Shown piece after piece: positions 27,798-52,236 of a stretch of 64,000 nt of DNA. Below the pieces are notes generated by a model. It saw nothing but the letters and a program-made list of their open reading frames with translations. It ran no database searches and was not told the DNA's origin. Source of the stretch: a virus; IMG/VR virus record IMGVR_UViG_3300045988_122072, positions 64,001 to 128,000 of that record; one strand, 5' to 3'. Position numbers and translations under genes: made by a program. Each line of letters begins with the position of its first letter. Within the stretch, counting starts at the first letter, position 1.

Positions 27798-28661
27798 ATG
27801 GGTGGCGGTTCTTGGACGAGAGATAACTTTACTAGCTATGTAACTACTGCAAAGTGTGCAATGGTAGACGATTTTGGTGTTGTCAGAGGACTAAATAGTG
27901 TTCAGGATAATTTTAAATCGAGATGCCTAGTGGCGGAGCTTAATCCTAAAAATGTTGTTCGCGAGTGTGTAGATTCCGCAGAGCATCCCAATACAAAGCC
28001 TGTTATTCTAGCACTCGATGTCACTGGTAGTATGGGCAGTGCAGCCATGGAAGTTGCAAAGCAGATCAATGTTGTTATGACAAGCCTATATGAGAAGATG
28101 ACAGATGTTGAATTTATGATTATGGGCATTGGAGATCTTGCTTATGATAACGCTCCAATTCAGGCATCTCAGTTTGAATCAGATATCAGAATCGCAGAAC
28201 AGCTTGATAAAATTTATTTTGAGGGCGGTGGCGGCGGCAATTCTTATGAGTCCTATACTGCCGCATGGTATTTTGGGCTTAATCATACCAAACTAGATTG
28301 TTGGAATCGTGGGCAGAAGGGTGTTATTATTACAATGGGTGATGAACCTTTGAATCCGTATCTGCCTAAGAATACTCTATCTGTTGCGACTGGTGATAAC
28401 CTACAGGATGATGTTGAGACAGCTCAGCTTTACAAGGATGCTTCTGAGAAGTTTGATATCTACCATTTGTATGTAAAGCATGGGTATGGTCGTTATGAAG
28501 AAGCCGTTAAGGATACTTTCGGCAAGTTTCTTGATACGAATCATCTCAAGACTACATCTGTAAATAAGATTGCAGATGACATTATTGAGATTGTAACAAA
28601 TGCATTTACTGGAAGCGATACAAGTACATTTGTAAATACTAGCGAAGGAATTTCTTGGTAA
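27798..28661 (+). CDS. von Willebrand factor A (VWA) domain protein
   Basis: MIDAS-like LALDVTGSMGS; later GGGGGNSYES. Confidence 0.65.
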   Translation: MGGGSWTRDNFTSYVTTAKCAMVDDFGVVRGLNSVQDNFKSRCLVAELNPKNVVRECVDSAEHPNTKPVILALDVTGSMGSAAMEVAKQINVVMTSLYEKMTDVEFMIMGIGDLAYDNAPIQASQFESDIRIAEQLDKIYFEGGGGGNSYESYTAAWYFGLNHTKLDCWNRGQKGVIITMGDEPLNPYLPKNTLSVATGDNLQDDVETAQLYKDASEKFDIYHLYVKHGYGRYEEAVKDTFGKFLDTNHLKTTSVNKIADDIIEIVTNAFTGSDTSTFVNTSEGISW

Positions 28662-28675
28662 GAGGAGATAAACAC

Positions 28676-33377: not shown

Positions 33378-34280
33378 GCTACTCAAGTCTTACAACCTCC
33401 ATGTGGTGAGTAGTGGGTAATGCTAATAGTAAGATATATTTATCATTCCCAATAATGACTTAGATATCATGATATCAACATATCAAATTGGGTGTCAGCC
33501 GTCAGGCACTTTAACGGCGTCATATCCTCTTTTAGTGTAAAGGTTGCACACCTCCAGTCAAGGAGCAGGAACGGTTCGATTCCGTACAGAGGACGGTTTG
33601 ACACAGCCGGAGTGTTATCTCTGGCATACGGATTAGCGTATGCAAAGCATTTGTCTTCGGATGGTAAAAATGCGAGAGAAGTCATCCCCTTGAACTTCTC
33701 ACTACATACATCCCTAGTGGTTGTTATGCTGAGGCCGATGATGGGGCGGTCGTTTATAATACCCCATTCAATATGCCGCTGTGATGGAATGTATACATCT
33801 TGGTCTCAAAAACCAAGGCTCGAAAGAGATTGCGTGGTCGAACACGTCAGCGGTACCATTTGCGGTTATCCTAAACCGCATATATGGCGGATTCGTTCAT
33901 TGGAAGGACACTCGGCTTTGACCCGAGAAAGGTTGGATCGTTACCAACATCCGCTGCCAGCCGATGAAACAAAGGCTTTGTTAGGTGGTGTTTGTGGAGG
34001 CTCTACCCGTAGGTTTGATGTTATCTTGTAAAGAGATGGTTCCTACGTCCTAACTTAGATCTTTCACAAAAACATCAACACATAATTGTCTTATCGCACC
34101 TCTGTTTAGCATTGCAAGTGCCCCAGATAAGCCTTTTGGAGAAAAATAAAATCCTATTTTTTCATAAGGGCGGACTGAATAAGTTGGTCATATTGAGTCC
34201 GTTCTAACTTTTGGTTGTAATGTAGTTGCTGAGTGGCTGATTGCTGACCACATGAAGCCATTCGGTAACGGCCAAAATAT
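33378..34280 (+). ncRNA. large structured non-coding RNA region B (about 0.9 kb, may be more than one RNA) with embedded tRNA-like element
   Basis: The only long ORF (33492..34031) lacks an RBS and translates to Arg/Ser/Cys-rich text. Hairpins include 33379-85/33407-13, GCATACG/CGTATGC 33624-43, CTTGG/CCAAG 33799-817, CTC-GAAA-GAG 33819-28, GCGGTT/AACCGC 33862-79, 33911-15/33923-27 and 33932-36/33944-48. Confidence 0.5.
33525..33594 (+). tRNA. degenerate tRNA-like element (6-nt anticodon-type loop AGTCAA; no CCA)
   Basis: Acceptor TCCTCTT/CAGAGGA (one mismatch); D arm GTGT-AAAGGTT-GCAC; CTCC-AGTCAA-GGAG; T arm ACGG-TTCGATT-CCGT. Confidence 0.35.
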
Positions 34281-34355
34281 GCGGGTGTAGTATAATGGTT
34301 ATTATGTCTGCCTTCCAAGCAGAAGATGGGGCTTCGATTGCCCTCACTCGCTCCA
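34281..34355 (+). tRNA. tRNA-Gly(TCC), CCA encoded
   Basis: GCGGGTG/CACTCGC acceptor; TCTGC-CTTCCAA-GCAGA anticodon arm; GGGGC-TTCGATT-GCCCT T arm; T-CCA end. Confidence 0.9.
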
Positions 34356-34487: not shown

Positions 34488-34760
34488 ATGTATCAAAACG
34501 TAATTGTTGGCGTTCCTTTGGTTGGAACTCCTGCGGAACTTTTTGGTTCTAGTCTGGAAGATTGGGCTCTGAACGAATCTGAAGTTACTCTTTTGACAGA
34601 AGAAAGATTTCTTCCTCGGATTTTAGTTGAAGCGGGGATTGTGAAAAGTACTAGCGAAGTTCGCAGAAATAGACCTGACCTTTGGAGAGAACTTAATGAG
34701 TTGGATTTCTTTCAAGTAAAATGGGGAAAGAAGTTTTTGTGGATTCTCGTTGGTGAATAA
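34488..34760 (+). CDS. small S4-fold / TyrRS C-terminal-domain-like RNA-binding protein (tentative)
   Basis: RBS GAAAGGAG. LVEAGIVKSTSEVRRN ... VKWGKKFLWILV resembles the TyrRS C-terminal LxxAGLxxSxSEARR ... GKKKxxLI pattern (from memory). Confidence 0.4.
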   Translation: MYQNVIVGVPLVGTPAELFGSSLEDWALNESEVTLLTEERFLPRILVEAGIVKSTSEVRRNRPDLWRELNELDFFQVKWGKKFLWILVGE

Positions 34761-37541: not shown

Positions 37542-37712
37542 ATGACAGAGGACAATCGTATTAAGGAAGAAGCCAAGAAGCAGAGAAATTTTTGGACATG
37601 TCCACGACCAGTGACTAAGGTTCTGCGCAACGCTAAGGCATACAACAGAGCCAAGGATCGTAAGGATAAACGATTGTATGAGGAAGATGAGGGTGTTGTC
37701 GAAGAAAGATAA
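37542..37712 (+). CDS. hypothetical small basic protein (56 aa)
   Basis: Hand translation MTEDNRIKEEAKKQRNFW...; RBS GAAAGGAG 9 nt upstream. Overlaps the start of the next gene. Confidence 0.3.
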   Translation: MTEDNRIKEEAKKQRNFWTCPRPVTKVLRNAKAYNRAKDRKDKRLYEEDEGVVEER

Positions 37713-38106
37713 AAGTTATTTTAGAGCAGCTCAGGCAGTTAGTACACTATCGGATTTTAAAAGAGTAAATGTAGGAGCAGTATTGGTTTATAAACACAGA
37801 ATTATTTCTAGCTCTTGCAATTCTCAGCGGACGCATCCTTTGCAGCAAAAACTTAATAAAGAGCGTTTTGAAGAGGAAACTCCTGCAAAGCTACATGCTG
37901 AAGTTAGTTGTCTTATTCCGCTGCTTGGAAATAAAGATATTAAGTGGAGAGATTGCGAACTCTACGTATACAGAGAATATAAGCGTGGTGGGCTGGCGAT
38001 GAGTCGCCCTTGCCCCTCCTGCCAAAAATTAATTAAAGAACTTGGCATTAAGACTGTCCATTACACGACTAACGGGGGATATGCCACAGAAGAATTTGAA
38101 ATTTAA
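37678..38106 (+). CDS. dCMP deaminase (start 37678 or 37687)
   Basis: Zinc motifs HAEVS ... PCPSCQKLI. Confidence 0.8.
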   Translation: MRKMRVLSKKDKSYFRAAQAVSTLSDFKRVNVGAVLVYKHRIISSSCNSQRTHPLQQKLNKERFEEETPAKLHAEVSCLIPLLGNKDIKWRDCELYVYREYKRGGLAMSRPCPSCQKLIKELGIKTVHYTTNGGYATEEFEI

Positions 38107-38896: not shown

Positions 38897-38935
38897 TTAT
38901 GACAGAAGAAAATAGTATAAATATGGAGGGCAAAG

Positions 38936-39757
38936 ATGACATCTGAAACTAAAATCTTAGTTTTTCAAAAGCTTTTAAATGAGTTTGAAACAGAAGAAAT
39001 TAAACTATATTGCGAAGATATGATTGAACAAATTCCAAATTACATATTCGATATGCCAAGTAGTACAACAGGTAAGCACCATAATAAAACACAATGTATG
39101 CTTCATGGGCAAATTTACCACATCATTATGTTTGGAACAATTGCAAATTATAGACTTGGACTTAAGTATAATAAAGAAAAGAAGTTCCCAGACCCAAGAA
39201 TTAGAGATGCTATTAGATGTACAGCGATTTTCCATGATGCATTGAAATGTGGCGACGGAACATCTCAATATACGGTTCATGAGCATCCTCTTCTCGCGGA
39301 AGAATGGATAAGAACAGCAAAAGTCAAACATGATATTGATTCAGAAATTAAAGAGTTTATGGCACATCTTTGCGCAGCACATTCAGGAGAATGGACAACT
39401 GCAAGACGTGGAAGTAAGACCGTTCTTCCAGAACCTCAGAATGAAGCTGAAATTTTTGTTCACGAATGTGACTATCTTGCAAGCCGTAGCGATATTGATA
39501 TGACAATTCCAGAATATTTGAATGAAATTTTCTCAGAATCTGACGTCAATGCAGTTAACAATTTTGATGTAGATAATTATGTAATGCAGTTTGGCAAATA
39601 CAAGGGACAGAAAATTATCGATGTGTATCATGAACATCCAGACTATTTGCAATGGTGTGAAGAAAACATTGGCCGCAGAGATGTTCTAGATGCTATTGCA
39701 GCTTGTAAGAAGAAAGCGGAAGAAAAGATTGAGGCCGATGACGATATTGATTTGTAA
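38936..39757 (+). CDS. HD-domain phosphohydrolase with C-terminal DUF3820-like tail
   Basis: GKHHN ... IFHDALK ... HECDYLASR (H...HD...D pattern). C-terminal FGKYKGQKIIDV...PDYLQWC. Confidence 0.6.
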   Translation: MTSETKILVFQKLLNEFETEEIKLYCEDMIEQIPNYIFDMPSSTTGKHHNKTQCMLHGQIYHIIMFGTIANYRLGLKYNKEKKFPDPRIRDAIRCTAIFHDALKCGDGTSQYTVHEHPLLAEEWIRTAKVKHDIDSEIKEFMAHLCAAHSGEWTTARRGSKTVLPEPQNEAEIFVHECDYLASRSDIDMTIPEYLNEIFSESDVNAVNNFDVDNYVMQFGKYKGQKIIDVYHEHPDYLQWCEENIGRRDVLDAIAACKKKAEEKIEADDDIDL

Positions 39758-42519: not shown

Positions 42520-43155
42520 ATGATTAACATTCGTCAAGACTTGATTCAAAAAGAACTTGAAAGAGGCTGCACTAATAGGCTTACGTTTCGAAAATTAAAG
42601 CCTAGTAACAGATTTATTGATAAGCTTTTTAATCATTACTATGTTGTCGAACATACAGAGCATTTTTATGATTCTGAACCAGAATATGATGATGAAGAAT
42701 TCAACATGTATATGGATTACGATTATATTAACCATAGAATAGATCCTGTTTCTGGCGCTGCTCTTTTTAATACAATTCTTAATTCTGCAGAAATAGCAAA
42801 AGAACAAGAAGACTGCCGCTTTTCAGAAGGGGAACATACGATGGAAGAACTTAAGCAAGCGTATGATAAAATTACACAACAAAGAAAAGATTATGAGTCA
42901 CGCAGAATTGAGTTTAACAATTGGATAGAACCTTATTTTAAGGGTAATTGGGGTATATCTCAGAAAGATGTTAACAAAATTGGTAGAAAACATCTTGAAG
43001 GCACGAAAAAATGTGGAGTGAGTTATAACGGTAGACTTTACATTGCAGAAGATGGAGATTCAATTTTCATTTATTACTATGGCAGAGATTTTGCACTAGT
43101 AGATTATTGGTGGATTTTCGAGAGGAAAAGAAAGAGATCGGTGATGGAAAAATGA
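42520..43155 (+). CDS. hypothetical protein
   Basis: ORF track; operon context. Confidence 0.5.
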   Translation: MINIRQDLIQKELERGCTNRLTFRKLKPSNRFIDKLFNHYYVVEHTEHFYDSEPEYDDEEFNMYMDYDYINHRIDPVSGAALFNTILNSAEIAKEQEDCRFSEGEHTMEELKQAYDKITQQRKDYESRRIEFNNWIEPYFKGNWGISQKDVNKIGRKHLEGTKKCGVSYNGRLYIAEDGDSIFIYYYGRDFALVDYWWIFERKRKRSVMEK

Positions 43156-44033
43156 ATAGACCCACTTTAATACTGCTTGTCGGGCCCAGCGGCTCCGGTA
43201 AGACTACATATGCTGAGAAATATATCTCAGAGCACACCAATACGGTTCATTTAAGCTCAGATAAGATTCGCAAAGAATTATGGGGAAACGAAGCTATTCA
43301 AGGTGACAATAATGAAATATTTGGAAGAATGCAAACTAGGGCAGTTGCTGGCTTGAATTTCGGTTATGATGTCATTTATGATTGCACGAGCATGACCAGA
43401 AAGGACAGAGCCGGAATTATTGCAGCTTGTCCTAAGTTTGCTAAGATTGAAGCACACATTATTTGGGCACCAATTGAAACTTGCATTGAGCGTGATGCCG
43501 CAAGAAAGCGTACAGTTGGTAAAGAAGTTATTGACAGAATGTTGAAGCGGTTTCAGGCTCCTTATTATGATGAGGGTATTAATGAAATTAAGGTGATTTT
43601 GCCAGACAATTTCAATCAGCAAAAGTACATAGATGATTCTATGAATGCAATGAAAATCCCGCATGACAATCCACATCATACCTTAGACATTTACAATCAT
43701 TGTGAGTCGGCATATAAGCATGCTGTAAGTAACGATATGTGTGATAATACTCTTGCGCTTGCGGCATCATTGCACGATATTGGTAAGCCATACGTCAAAG
43801 CATTTGTCAATGCAAAAGGTGAACCAAGTGATATCGCGCACTACTATCAACATCAATGTATTGGAGCTTGGATGGCGTATGGCCTTGTTGTAAATGAAAT
43901 CAACATGGATGTTGCTTGGCTTGTCAGCACACATATGGCGCCATTTTTAAACGAGAAATATTATAAAAATCTACCAACATATCTAAAGATAATGGTAGAT
44001 CAGCTACATGAGTGTGATATTCTGGCACATTAA
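43152..44033 (+). CDS. P-loop kinase fused to HD phosphohydrolase (polynucleotide kinase/phosphatase-like)
   Basis: Walker A LVGPSGSGKTT at the N-terminus; HD motif AASLHDIGKP in the C-terminal half. ATGA overlap with the upstream gene. Confidence 0.65.
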   Translation: MNRPTLILLVGPSGSGKTTYAEKYISEHTNTVHLSSDKIRKELWGNEAIQGDNNEIFGRMQTRAVAGLNFGYDVIYDCTSMTRKDRAGIIAACPKFAKIEAHIIWAPIETCIERDAARKRTVGKEVIDRMLKRFQAPYYDEGINEIKVILPDNFNQQKYIDDSMNAMKIPHDNPHHTLDIYNHCESAYKHAVSNDMCDNTLALAASLHDIGKPYVKAFVNAKGEPSDIAHYYQHQCIGAWMAYGLVVNEINMDVAWLVSTHMAPFLNEKYYKNLPTYLKIMVDQLHECDILAH

Positions 44034-45158: not shown

Positions 45159-46058
45159 ATGAATCTTATTGGCAAGTATCAGAATGGGAATTATATCGTA
45201 AGTTTGTACGATGACGGAACTAAGATTCGTGAGAATGATTTGGATAATCTGACTCCTGCTTTTGCAGAGAACTGTGATGTTAAAATTACAGATAAGTGTG
45301 ATGGAGGCTGTGCCTTCTGCTATGAAGGCTGCACACCTAATGGCAAGCATGGTGATATTCTAAAACCTAAATTCCTAGATACCCTTCATCCATATACTGA
45401 GCTGGCTATCAATGGCAACGATCTTTCTCATCCAGATTTGGTTCCTTTCATGTACAAGATGAAAGATAAGAATATCATTCTCAATATGACAGTGAATCAG
45501 ATTCATTTTGAAAGATACTTTGATACAATTAAAGACTGGATTGACAAAAAGCTAATTTATGGACTTGGAATCTCTCTGCGTAAGCCGACATATGAATTCA
45601 TTGATATGGTTAAGCAGATTCCAAACGCTGTTATTCATGTAATTAATGGCATTGTTTCTATGCCAGATCTTGATACTCTTGCTGGAAATGGACTCAAAAT
45701 TCTTATTCTTGGATATAAGAATCTAAGACGTGGTGAAAGTTATTATGAGAGTCACAATGAAAGTGTACTTGGATTACAGGAAGATTTAAACCGCTACCTC
45801 TTCCCTGAAATTATCGGGCACAGTTGGTTTGATGTTGTGAGTTTTGATAATCTAGCAATCGAACAGCTTCATGTTAAAGAATATATGTCCAAGGAAGAAT
45901 GGAATAGTTTCTTTATGGGCGAAGATGGCGATTATACTTTCTATATTGATATGGTCGAAGGAATGTTTGCAAAAGATTCCTTGTCTATGGAACGTTATCC
46001 TCTTATGGATAATATTGATGACATGTTTAACTTTTTGAGAAATAAGAAGGAGAAGTAA
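45159..46058 (+). CDS. radical-SAM-like protein
   Basis: CxxxCxxC cluster in ITDKCDGGCAFCYEG; ATG 45159 behind RBS TAAGGAGG. Confidence 0.5.
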   Translation: MNLIGKYQNGNYIVSLYDDGTKIRENDLDNLTPAFAENCDVKITDKCDGGCAFCYEGCTPNGKHGDILKPKFLDTLHPYTELAINGNDLSHPDLVPFMYKMKDKNIILNMTVNQIHFERYFDTIKDWIDKKLIYGLGISLRKPTYEFIDMVKQIPNAVIHVINGIVSMPDLDTLAGNGLKILILGYKNLRRGESYYESHNESVLGLQEDLNRYLFPEIIGHSWFDVVSFDNLAIEQLHVKEYMSKEEWNSFFMGEDGDYTFYIDMVEGMFAKDSLSMERYPLMDNIDDMFNFLRNKKEK

Positions 46059-46060
46059 TT

Positions 46061-46894
46061 ATGGATAAGACATCTCTTGGTGATAGAATGAAAAACAACT
46101 ATGAAAATGTTAATAGATTTTATTTAACAAGAAGAATACCAGTTATTATTAGAATGGATATGAAGGCCGGTCATACTTTTACTAGAGGAATGAAGAAGCC
46201 GTTTGATGATATTTTCGTAAAGACAATGCAAGAGACTATGAAGTATCTCTGTGAGAACATTCAGGGTTGTGTTCTTGGTTATACTCAGAGTGACGAAATT
46301 TCTCTTGTACTGACAGACTATGCAGAGTTGACAACAGATGCATGGTTTGGAAACAATCTACAGAAGATGTGTAGCGTATCTGCGAGTATGGCAACATTGG
46401 CATTTAATAAAGCATTTAACGACAATATTGTAAGGTATATTGACAGTCATTTTGATACCGATTGTGATGTTACGAGGGATTTAGCTGAATATACAAAAAT
46501 TCTCATTAATGCAAGAAACAAAGGAGCAATGTTCGATTCTCGTGTCTTTACAATTCCTAAAGAGGAAGTTTGTAACTATATACTGTGGAGACAGCAGGAC
46601 GCCACTCGCAATTCTATCCAGTCTGTAGGTCAAGCAAACTTTAGCGATAAAGAATTGTATAAGAAGTCTACTAAAGACATTCAAGACATGCTTATGACTC
46701 AAAAAGGTATCAACTGGAATGACTATGCAACGACTCTAAAGCGTGGTAGCTGTTGTATTAAAGTCGATGATAGTCTTACTGAGTATGACGAAGTGGGAAA
46801 TATTCGTGGTTATACTCAAAGAAGTAAGTGGGTAATCGATAATAAAATTCCTATCTTTACTCAGGACAGAAACTATGTTGAAAAGCTAATTTGA
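46061..46894 (+). CDS. Thg1-like protein (tRNA-His guanylyltransferase family 3'-5' polymerase)
   Basis: RMDMKAGHTFTRGMKKPFD and GYTQSDEISLVL match Thg1/TLP signature regions. Confidence 0.75.
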   Translation: MDKTSLGDRMKNNYENVNRFYLTRRIPVIIRMDMKAGHTFTRGMKKPFDDIFVKTMQETMKYLCENIQGCVLGYTQSDEISLVLTDYAELTTDAWFGNNLQKMCSVSASMATLAFNKAFNDNIVRYIDSHFDTDCDVTRDLAEYTKILINARNKGAMFDSRVFTIPKEEVCNYILWRQQDATRNSIQSVGQANFSDKELYKKSTKDIQDMLMTQKGINWNDYATTLKRGSCCIKVDDSLTEYDEVGNIRGYTQRSKWVIDNKIPIFTQDRNYVEKLI

Positions 46895-51058: not shown

Positions 51059-51126
51059 GAATAAAATATCATACGAATCATACGAAACGGTAAGAAGCAA
51101 AATTTTCAGAAAGGAGGTAATAGTTG

Positions 51127-52236
51127 ATGAAAATTTTAAGAGCATATAAATACCGGATATATCCAAATCAAGAGCAAGAAATTTTAATTCAAAAAACATT
51201 TGGATGTGTAAGGTTTGTATATAATCAGGCACTTTCATATCGTCAAGAATTATATAAAACCAAAAGAAAAAATATCAGTAAATTTGCTTGTGAACAGTAT
51301 ATGATTCAAGTTCTAAAACAACAATATGAATGGTTGAGAGAAGTTGATAAATTTGCATTATCAAGTGCAATTTGGAATATGGATTATGCATATCAAAAAT
51401 TTTTCAAAGAACATGCAGGCTTCCCGAAGTTTAAAAGCAAACATAATCACAGAAAATCATATACAACAAAAATAACAAATAACAATATTGCAGTTTCTTT
51501 TGAGAACAATAAAATTAAGCTTCCAAAGTTAAGTTGGGTTAAAGCAAGGATTCATCGTAAATTTGTTGGCAAAATTAAACAAGCAACAGTTTCACAAAAT
51601 CCATCAGGAAAATATTTTGTTTCTGTGTTAGTAGAAGAAGAACATCGTCCATTATTAACAACCGGTTCTACTATTGGACTTGATCTTGGAATTAAAGATT
51701 TGGTTATTACCTCCAATGGTAAAAAATATGCAAATCCAAAAATCTTAGAGAAGTATAAAAAGAAACTTTCTAAAGAACAACGAAGAATGACTCATAAACA
51801 AAAAAGTTCAAGTAATTATAACAAACAACGCATTAAAGTTGCTCGTATTTACGAAAAAATCCATAATATCAGATTAGATTATCTACACAAAATATCTAAT
51901 GAAATTATTAGCGAAAACCAAGTAATAATTTCTGAAGATTTATCCATATCTAATATGATGAAGAACCATAAACTAGCAAAATCAATTAGTGATTGTGGCT
52001 GGTACGAGCTAACGAGGCAATTAGAATATAAGGCAAAATGGAATGAAAGACAATATATCAAGATTGGAAGATTCATTCCATCGAGTCAAATTTGCAATTG
52101 TTGTGGATACAGGTATCCAGAAACAAAAGATTTATCGGTTAGAGCATGGACATGTCCTAGTTGTGGAACAAAACACGACCGAGATATTAATGCGGCTAAA
52201 AATATTTTAGACGAAGGATTAAAATTTGTGGTGTGA
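51127..52236 (+). CDS. tnpB: TnpB (IS200/IS605 OrfB, RuvC-like RNA-guided nuclease family)
   Basis: N-terminal [16 protein letters not shown]; GLDLGIKD RuvC-I; zinc finger CNCCGY...[18 protein letters not shown]. Confidence 0.85.

Follow-up and report, generated by a model that had tools for sequence, protein, structure and literature searches.

The region at 33378-34280 of a 64,000-nt stretch of viral DNA (IMG/VR virus record IMGVR_UViG_3300045988_122072, positions 64,001 to 128,000; this whole stretch is called the window) is very probably the middle part of a polycistronic tRNA and small-RNA operon downstream of a gene for a Ro60-like protein. It would be a chain of separate RNA modules, in which a theta ribozyme frees a tRNA without CCA. 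An earlier reading made from the sequence only had taken the region, between a 93-nt tRNA and tRNA-Gly, for a tRNA-free, large structured RNA, either GOLLD-like or new, with two or more separate RNAs as a fallback. The fallback was correct: besides independently moving modules the region holds a ribozyme (33378-33435), a tRNA-Leu-like gene (33775-33858) and a tRNA-Gln(UUG) gene (33886-33959). These three belong to known kinds. A non-decoding cloverleaf, its hairpin tail and a 320-nt element are conserved, structured and unclassified, and neither the tRNA-like/hairpin unit nor the 320-nt element matches an Rfam family.

Related viral contigs used for comparison are designated by L-numbers (L003, L016, L020, L022, L064 and others). 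The features of the region and of its borders are:

33285-33377, plus strand: 93-nt tRNA(UAU); its variable arm is long and CCA is not encoded (Rfam tRNA 46.4 bits; ARAGORN)
33378-33435, plus strand: minimal ribozyme of the hepatitis delta virus (HDV)-like, theta type (RF02682, model R2, segment layout)
33436-33525, plus strand: AT-rich spacer module, conserved in the clade, with one hairpin at 33443-47/33454-58 and another at 33498-502/33514-18
33526-33593, plus strand: tRNA-like cloverleaf whose 'anticodon' loop has 6 nt and whose T stem has 4 bp; the discriminator is A, and CCA is absent (model R1, covariation)
33594-33774, plus strand: multi-hairpin RNA following the cloverleaf (compensatory changes relative to L020/L023 and L016)
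33775-33858, plus strand: non-canonical class II tRNA-Leu(CAA)-like gene with A73 and CCA at 33856-58 (homology, fold)
33863-33879, plus strand: spacer hairpin GCGGUU/AACCGC (33863-33868/33874-33879) within the 27 nt that separate tRNA-Gln from the tRNA-Leu-like gene
33886-33959, plus strand: tRNA-Gln(UUG) with encoded CCA (ARAGORN; Rfam tRNA 44.7 bits, gathering score 29)
33960-34280, plus strand: conserved structured element of ~320 nt (conservation, strand-specific folding)
34281-34355, plus strand: tRNA-Gly(UCC), the 3′ boundary of the region (ARAGORN, Rfam)

Separate modules instead of one large RNA

A comparison with the Rfam large-RNA models had been proposed together with the sequence-only reading. 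Searches at gathering scores and at E ≤10 of the window, of 6-kb and 1.2-kb surroundings and of 33515-33870 matched no large-RNA family, including GOLLD, ROOL and HEARO. Furthermore, Blast and nhmmer comparisons among contigs with flanking genes ~90% identical revealed modules that are present, absent, replaced or moved independently of each other. This reshuffling excludes a single 0.9-kb RNA.

GOLLD RNAs are associated with tRNAs. The phage origin of the DNA, the neighbouring tRNAs and several stable hairpins speak for one structured RNA of ~0.9 kb, and a setting in phages beside tRNA genes is what the region shares with GOLLD (RF01998). It differs from GOLLD in lacking a match to the model and in comprising several independent genes. 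With a ribozyme, tRNA-Gln and the tRNA-Leu-like gene inside the stretch, and with modules that were rearranged, replaced or lost one by one in relatives, a single GOLLD-like molecule is highly improbable, and the apparent giant RNA becomes an annotated operon.

The only long open reading frame (ORF) of the region, as had been noted before, is 33492-34031 (179 aa, GTG start). Being the sole long frame is the point in its favour; it has no Pfam match and it overlaps three RNA genes, namely the cloverleaf, the tRNA-Leu-like gene and tRNA-Gln. The homologous DNA of L020/L023 lies at two separate places, with indels of 1, 1, 4, 1 and 3 nt relative to the L020 lineage, which break the frame and thus exclude the ORF. 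We agree that it is not a gene: judged from the sequences compared, the 179-aa frame appears spurious, and we give a protein product practically no chance.

All four hairpins named in the sequence-only reading are present: GCATACG/CGTATGC (33624-33630/33637-33643), CTCGAAAGAG, GCGGTT/AACCGC and CTCGG/CCGAG. Three of them belong to tRNA genes or to the spacer between them: the GAAA hairpin CTCGAAAGAG (33820-33829) is the variable arm of the tRNA-Leu-like gene, CTCGG/CCGAG is the anticodon stem of tRNA-Gln(UUG), and GCGGTT/AACCGC is the spacer hairpin. The strong folding that had been ascribed to the whole region exceeded that of shuffled sequences for 33957-34280 (z = −3.67) and for the tRNA-Leu-like gene (z = −2.37), but not for 33595-33775 (z = −1.5).

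A theta-type ribozyme directly follows the 93-nt tRNA

The 93-nt tRNA(UAU) is the only canonical-type tRNA in the array of the window that has no encoded CCA. The CCA of tRNA-Asp, -Asn, -Gln and -Gly was read from the sequence; for tRNA-Lys, as for these four, the end given by ARAGORN lies three bases past the Rfam end. The 93-nt tRNA has a class II-type variable arm, and its position 33 is C in the window (loop CCUAUAC), while L016 has the usual U33.

At a distance of 0 nt from the discriminator base A33377 (up to 5 nt on either side of a tRNA 3′ end were allowed) follows a sequence in which the nested double-pseudoknot order P1-J1/2-P2-P3-L3-P3′-P1′-P1.1-L4-J4/2-P2′ can be placed in full (33378-33435). 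P1 is formed by 33378-84/33408-14, J1/2 by 33385-86, P2 by 33387-93/33429-35, P3 by 33395-97/33405-07, L3 by 33398-33404 and P1.1 by C33399-C33400 with G33415-G33416. P4 is reduced to a short loop, L4 (33417-22), of 6 nt (GUAAUG), the same as in several published examples. Cleavage is predicted 5′ of G33378, the +1 base, which forms the first P1 pair with U33414 (G.U). The catalytic cytosine C33423 is the first base of J4/2 (within GCUAA) and is aligned to the CTAA of the published set.

Divided into segments the window ribozyme reads GCUACUC-AA-GUCUUAC-A-ACC-U-CC-AUGU-GGU-GAGUAGU-GG-GUAAUG-CUAA-UA-GUAAGAU, and a published form reads GAAUAGC-AA-AUGAGAA-ACC-U-CC-ACGU-GGU-GCUAUUY-GG-GUAAYG-CUAA-UUCUCAU. 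The core ACC-T-CC-AYGT-GGT...GG-GTAATG-CTAA agrees segment by segment with the published examples, T33402 being the sole difference from those published rows that entered the comparison. Of the conserved L3 sequence U-NC-NCGY the CC/GG pairs of P1.1 are present; L3 is UCCAUGU in the window, and relatives have ACGU.

The Rfam model RF02682 (HDV-F-prausnitzii), whose gathering score is 44, aligned end-to-end with 33378-33434 and reached 33.5 bits (E 4e-4). We also used a covariance model, R2, built solely from 20 published minimal HDV-like/theta ribozymes. It detected 33379-33433 with 32.1 bits (E 5e-5) as the sole credible match in the window, and over 331 kb of window and relatives it gave one credible match per genome, those of the relatives scoring ~40 bits. 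Our own HDV descriptor was too loose, gave many false matches and was discarded. One of these matches, directly after the cloverleaf (33595-33652), was rejected for three reasons: its P1 consists almost entirely of wobble pairs, the candidate is lost in L020, and it gave no match with R2.

Comparison with the relatives connects the ribozyme to the tRNA's 3′ end. In L022 this ribozyme stands behind another tRNA, a canonical tRNA-Ile(UAU) of 74 nt, and three lineages (L016/L020/L023 and L064) encode CCA on the same 93-nt tRNA and have no ribozyme there. Either CCA or ribozyme on the same tRNA is the pattern predicted for a ribozyme of 3′-end maturation, and it agrees with the published finding that only 4.5% of the theta-associated tRNAs have an encoded CCA. 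This contrast, together with one ribozyme on two different tRNA-Ile(UAU) genes, provides a natural comparison for theta ribozymes, and it supports their role in tRNA 3′-end maturation in a phage with the standard code.

Theta ribozymes were described at the 3′ ends of tRNAs in gut phages (Kienbeck et al. 2024, PMC10879173). The window copy has the same double pseudoknot without P4, the same segment lengths and conserved bases (AA; ACC-U-CC-AYGU-GGU; GG-GUAAUG-CUAA), G1 directly after the discriminator base, a tRNA without CCA and a genome of the gut Caudoviricetes type; the published Theta #1 sequence likewise adjoins tRNA-Ile(UAU). It differs from the theta ribozymes of that study by U for C in the 'CG' of L3 and by two extra unpaired bases around P2; in addition, the genetic code of the window phage is the standard one, and the ribozyme-linked tRNA is no suppressor.

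tRNA-Gln and a tRNA-Leu-like gene within the region

The tRNA-Gln(UUG) gene is a bona fide tRNA with a cloverleaf above the Rfam threshold and a 7-nt anticodon loop. Its Rfam match appeared once the fast filters were relaxed. Upstream of it, 33775-33858 aligns with ARAGORN-called tRNA-Leu(CAA) genes of L009, L016, L018 and L003, and its acceptor stem covaries (GCCGCUG, GGCGGUG, GGGGGCA, GCCCGAA). At minimum free energy the sequence folds into a class II cloverleaf that has a CUCAAAA loop and a long variable arm. The D loop is shortened and has no GG (G18/G19; L022 keeps GG), and the T loop has 6 nt. By its sequence the gene appears to be tRNA-derived, with an uncertain function. The region also illustrates that phage genes can escape tRNA finders: tRNA-Gln falls under the fast Rfam filters, and the tRNA-Leu-like gene and the tRNA mimic described below are seen by neither ARAGORN nor Rfam.

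A covarying cloverleaf that cannot decode

The spacer module between ribozyme and cloverleaf (33436-33525) occurs as separate copies elsewhere in L022, L010 and L064, and its first stem covaries (GUCAUU/AAUGAC vs GCCAUU/AAUGGC). Its folding does not differ significantly from shuffled sequences (z = −1.05).

The cloverleaf with a 6-nt loop and without CCA was already seen in the sequence-only reading. It is real and conserved with covariation, and it is the minimum-free-energy fold of 33526-33593. With model R1 10 distinct variants were found in related contigs. In their alignment 93% of the cells are paired and 12 of the 20 pairs changed on both sides; this pairing was reached by none of 500 shuffles and no slid register comes close. 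The alignment was fitted to the R1 model, which somewhat favours structure. The D arm is nearly invariant (GUGUAAWGGUWGCAC in 8 of the 10 variants; L010 and L011 differ). The loop varies in sequence (AGUCAA, GCCGA, CGUCAA, CGAAAG, GUGGU, AUGGU), has 5-6 nt in all 10 variants and therefore cannot decode. Thus, the double changes point to purifying selection on the tRNA shape. The Rfam tRNA model (RF00005) did not match the window cloverleaf, and two variants exceed its threshold (L064 with 33.3 bits, L010 with 49.9 bits). Judged by the 7-nt loop and the tRNA score that a tRNA should have, we regard 33526-33593 as tRNA-like and not as a tRNA.

The multi-hairpin tail (33594-33774) was compared with L020/L023, where an 82% identical copy lies elsewhere in the array, and with the much more diverged L016. 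It contains the hairpins 33624-30/33637-43, 33647-52/33668-73 (with an inner UUCG hairpin), 33676-82/33694-700 and 33740-46/33762-68, and a possible H-type pseudoknot (33594-97/33606-09 with 33599-604/33612-17) may precede them. Three stems compare as follows:

4-bp stem directly after the cloverleaf: window CGGY/GCCG; L020/L023 GCGC/GCGC; L016 CAUC/GAUG
interleaved stem: window UGACAC/GUGUUA; L020/L023 unchanged; L016 UGGCAC/GUGCAA
hairpin 33676-82/33694-700: window GAGAAG/CUUCUC; L020/L023 GGCAGA/UCUGUC; L016 GGUAGA/UCUACC

For two stems the covariation over three lineages is visible by eye, and RNAalifold found four pairs with double changes between the window and the L020 lineages. Conservation extends to the CCUUG loop sequence of hairpin 33676-82/33694-700 and to two hairpins, GCAUAC(G) and the one capped by UUCG. 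In every lineage the 3′ end of the tail is the exact 5′ end of a tRNA. The tail matched no Rfam family, and its folding was not significantly different from shuffled controls (z = −1.5 to −1.2). A tmRNA-like reading of cloverleaf and tail was discarded because the tRNA shape is contiguous, a short tag ORF is absent and no tmRNA was called by ARAGORN.

A 320-nt element conserved next to diverged genes

The last module of the region (33960-34280) includes a drum-like hairpin on the 5′ side (33959-34080) and, directly before tRNA-Gly, a long one on the 3′ side (34209-34277). Its 11 distinct versions all share at least 95% identity, with 22 variable sites. In L023 the module is still ~96% identical, despite a different tRNA-Gly and a downstream 90-aa protein with only 66% identity. 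The plus strand of 33957-34280, whose z score is given above, folds with −95 kcal/mol, compared to z = −0.29 for the minus strand; the 3′ hairpin alone has z = −3.79. Eleven substitutions keep a predicted pair and four break one, and one pair (34237/34257) is compensatory via a wobble intermediate. No credible small ORF was found in the element.

Outside the clade no homologue of the element was found in the collections searched (IMG/VR, metagenomes, GTDB genomes). Exact-pattern scans of IMG/VR with 33594-33774 and 33960-34280 yielded the same 8 contigs plus chance 16-mer matches, a metagenome scan via the 90-aa protein yielded the same clade and distant relatives without these modules, and the GTDB genomes contain no homologue of either. 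Contigs with Ro60-like proteins 67-75% identical likewise have neither module.

The 5′ third of the element (33959-34080) resembles the drum RNA (RF02958; Weinberg et al. 2017), which was described as an RNA with a probable sophisticated function tied to particular genes (PMC5737381). The first ~45 nt can form the drum 5′ hairpin, cmscan aligned the full model with the conserved internal-loop bases GAUGAA and GGAG matched, and a T/C polymorphism at 33979 falls in a loop of this fold. Unlike drum, the match is far under the threshold (20.2 bits vs a gathering score of 43; E = 0.4 to 2), the 3′ half of the model aligns poorly, and the Rho-independent terminator described for drum (PMC5737381) was not found after 33959-34080. 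Nor were divergent homologues found that would allow a covariation analysis. A divergent drum RNA is thus quite unlikely.

The non-tRNA parts might also be decaying leftovers of a tRNA array that is becoming smaller, namely pseudo-tRNAs and functionless spacers. Relatives have 14-18 tRNAs at this locus vs six ARAGORN calls over the whole 64 kb of the window; the tRNA-Leu-like gene is without G18/G19, its T loop is one base short, and the tRNA finders do not call it; the anticodon loop of the cloverleaf is truncated; and modules were gained and lost between close relatives. Nevertheless, decay does not account for cloverleaf pairing that was kept through double changes, which indicates purifying selection on structure. 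It also fits poorly with a 320-nt element that stayed nearly identical where the adjacent tRNA-Gly and the 90-aa gene diverged and that is structured on one strand only, and neither 33594-33774 nor 33960-34280 is tRNA-like. We regard decay as an unlikely explanation, somewhat less so than the drum assignment.

Proposed maturation of the operon transcript

The operon would be read on the plus strand, probably from a promoter upstream of the gene for the Ro60-like protein:

30248-30275, plus strand: sigma-70 promoter with the consensus TTGACA-16-TGnTATAAT (12/12 consensus matches)

By its consensus match this promoter is the likely start of the operon transcript. Within 33378-34280 neither promoter-like nor terminator-like sites were found on the plus strand, and we assume no terminator between the promoter and the region. 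The theta-type ribozyme would cut 5′ of G33378 and free the 93-nt tRNA(UAU) at its discriminator base. Such a cut leaves a 2′,3′-cyclic phosphate, so that healing and then CCA addition would be needed, possibly by a Pnkp-like kinase and HD protein (43035-44030) or by host enzymes. The other boundaries would be set by the tRNA-shaped elements, i.e. the cloverleaf, the tRNA-Leu-like gene, tRNA-Gln and tRNA-Gly, at which RNase P, together with RNase Z or exonucleases, may cut. The expected products are tRNAs, a ~180-nt multi-hairpin RNA (33594-33774) and a ~320-nt conserved RNA (33960-34280). The cloverleaf would most likely serve as a handle for processing, stabilisation or protein binding.

The product of 43035-44030 joins a Pnkp-like polynucleotide kinase with an HD phosphohydrolase in one protein, and 46046-46891 encodes a Thg1-like 3′-5′ nucleotidyltransferase. 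We infer that both could form a set for RNA and tRNA end repair near the tRNA operon, able to heal the cyclic-phosphate end.

Small stable RNAs that are not tRNAs occur in the tRNA cluster of phage T4 (species 1 and 2, rnaC/rnaD), where they are co-transcribed with the tRNAs and released by tRNA-processing enzymes. Like these, the two non-tRNA RNAs of the window lie among phage tRNA genes. The T4 RNAs are shorter and have no link to a ribozyme or to a Ro60-like gene.

Several observations weigh against the proposed operon or parts of it. U33402 lies in the 'CG' of L3, where all 68 rows compared from the published alignment have C. Furthermore, the window ribozyme has an A.A mismatch at the P2/P3 junction and scores 8 bits below its relatives with R2, and in the close relatives L017-L021 the +1 base is A and not G. 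Because of U33402, of the mismatch beside P3 and of A at +1 in L017-L021 some ribozyme copies may be weakened, and the window copy itself may be weakened or dead as judged from its sequence. No CCA-adding enzyme was detected among the window proteins tested, the window being less than half of such a genome (contigs of relatives reach 150-170 kb). The tRNA-Leu-like gene is not called by ARAGORN, has no Rfam tRNA match at E ≤10 and may be a pseudogene. Cloverleaf and tail together (33526-33774) fold no more stably than shuffled controls. Since divergent homologues are missing, the structure of the 320-nt element rests on thermodynamics and on the 11:4 pattern of substitutions, which is suggestive.

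A Ro60-like protein upstream and the question of Y RNAs

The gene upstream of the region is:

30797-32386, plus strand: Ro60/TROVE and vWA-like protein of 529 aa, Pfam DUF2828 and DUF7788, phrog_850 'RNA-binding protein' (Pfam, PHROGs, fold search)

A sequence search of the protein against the PDB gave no match; the relationship to Ro60 was seen by fold search only. The AlphaFold2 model (pLDDT 72) was compared by Foldseek, and the top four PDB matches, all full-length, were Ro60 of Thermus phage phiLo (9kop, 9l5y), Rsr of D. radiodurans (2nvo) and Xenopus Ro (1yvr), with E values of 1e-7 to 3e-4 and TM-scores of 0.35 to 0.53. According to this model the protein has the Ro60 fold. In a cultured Enterococcus phage, too, a homologous gene is located among the genes of a tRNA array. 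By tblastn, homologues with DUF2828 and DUF7788 are present in 710 GenBank phage records.

Y RNAs tether or gate the bacterial Rsr protein, and the same was shown for the Ro60 of Thermus phage phiLo, which binds Y-like RNAs encoded beside its gene (PMC12135203). Bacterial and phage Y RNAs are encoded on the same strand as Ro60, at most 4 kb away, and have tRNA-like modules, and the 'anticodon' arm of D. radiodurans Yrn1 has a 5-bp stem and a 6-nt loop (PMC4201824). We therefore considered whether 33526-33774, and possibly the 320-nt element too, could be Y-RNA-like partners that tether or gate the Ro60-like protein of the phage. The protein with the predicted Ro60 fold is encoded 1.1 kb upstream on the same strand, well inside the distance of ~4 kb; the cloverleaf family covaries although its loop is too short for decoding, as in Yrn1; and the Ro60-like gene of L076 is likewise flanked by tRNA-like elements whose loops have 6 nt. 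The fold, the tRNA mimicry of same-strand Y RNAs close to Ro60 genes and the Yrn1 loop keep a Y-RNA-like role of the cloverleaf unit alive but unproven.

Unlike YrlA, Yrn1 and phiLo Yrl1/2, the unit shows no match to YrlA (RF02553), for which 33378-34280 was searched at E ≤10, and it has neither of the conserved Ro-binding motifs (GNCGAAN0-1G or CGAA in a bulge). It also has no supported Ro-binding helix joining the 5′ and 3′ ends, as the predicted closing stem is lost in L020. The cloverleaf is a complete, contiguous tRNA shape that is followed by separate hairpins. In addition, many relatives with the same Ro60-like gene do not have the module, and better candidates lie upstream of the gene. 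Taken together, we consider Y-RNA-like partners a doubtful interpretation, if a somewhat stronger one than decay.

The candidates upstream, 30341-30464 and 30473-30590, are tRNA-shaped genes with insertions of 45-50 nt (Rfam tRNA 48.7 and 42.6 bits; no ARAGORN call). They lie directly upstream of the Ro60-like gene, overlap a weak YrlA match at 30418-30526 (26 bits) and by sequence appear to be the best Y-RNA-like candidates of the window. Around and inside these tRNA-like genes the motif WRCAGCAANYTT occurs in 4 copies within 360 nt (30401-30764) and nowhere else in the 64 kb, where 0.6 copies are expected by chance. The motif is also found upstream of the Ro60-like gene of a distant relative (L076, 7700-7920). 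Weak YrlA-like hits adjoin CUA-anticodon tRNAs of L067 and L068, which are described below.

The cloverleaf/hairpin unit and the 320-nt element could derive from the tRNA operon by excision or act as partners of the Ro60-like protein. As a wider and tentative proposal, to which we give a low probability only slightly above that of the Y-RNA interpretation, 33526-33774 and 33960-34280 may represent new classes of phage non-coding RNAs that are made by tRNA-style processing and work with the Ro60-like protein and the RNA-repair genes (Pnkp-like, Thg1-like). If so, they might for example be Y-RNA analogues that recruit or gate host enzymes of RNA decay and repair during infection. A non-decoding tRNA mimic and two unclassified structured RNAs are placed here beside a Ro60-like gene that is widespread in large phages, which makes a system of the Ro60/Y-RNA type in gut phages directly testable.

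Genome context and neighbouring genes

The window has a G+C content of ~35%, and its plus strand is densely tiled by standard-code ORFs; stop-codon recoding was rejected for this reason. It encodes a DNA polymerase III alpha subunit, an NAD-dependent ligase, ribonucleotide reductase and integrases. The close relatives are solely uncultured viral contigs of 80-170 kb from human-gut data, and among GenBank phages a distant-mode blastn with the region matched only tRNA-Gly. The region belongs to a human-gut phage with a genome of roughly 150-170 kb. At the equivalent locus of relatives a tRNA array (up to 18 genes) lies downstream of the DUF2828 and DUF7788 gene.

The 90-aa protein downstream of tRNA-Gly (34488-34760) is conserved beside tRNA genes in the clade and in more distant relatives. 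It has no match in Pfam, PHROGs or PDB sequence searches, which also gave no support for an S4/TyrRS-C-like assignment. Directly upstream of the 90-aa gene, L067 (476-573, 724-820) and L068 (3899-3989) have long tRNAs of class II whose anticodon is CUA (amber suppressor), which suggests recoding in these phages.

A match resembling a group I intron (41.9 bits vs a gathering score of 50) was found at 32464-32687, directly after the Ro60-like gene. It contains no homing-endonuclease ORF, while L071-L073 have a LAGLIDADG-like ORF at the equivalent place. The tRNA region of L016 has a near-threshold match to RAGATH-27 (2826-2911; 59.5 bits, gathering score 76, E 1e-5). Three genes of the window encode an adenylosuccinate-synthetase-like protein (28655-29824), a deaminase (37615-38103) and an HD/ExoX-C protein (38921-39754), and they may belong to a modified-nucleotide pathway, perhaps of the PurZ type. 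Finally, a TnpB gene (OrfB_IS605 / Cas12f1-like TNB) is located at 51124-52233 within a patch of low G+C.

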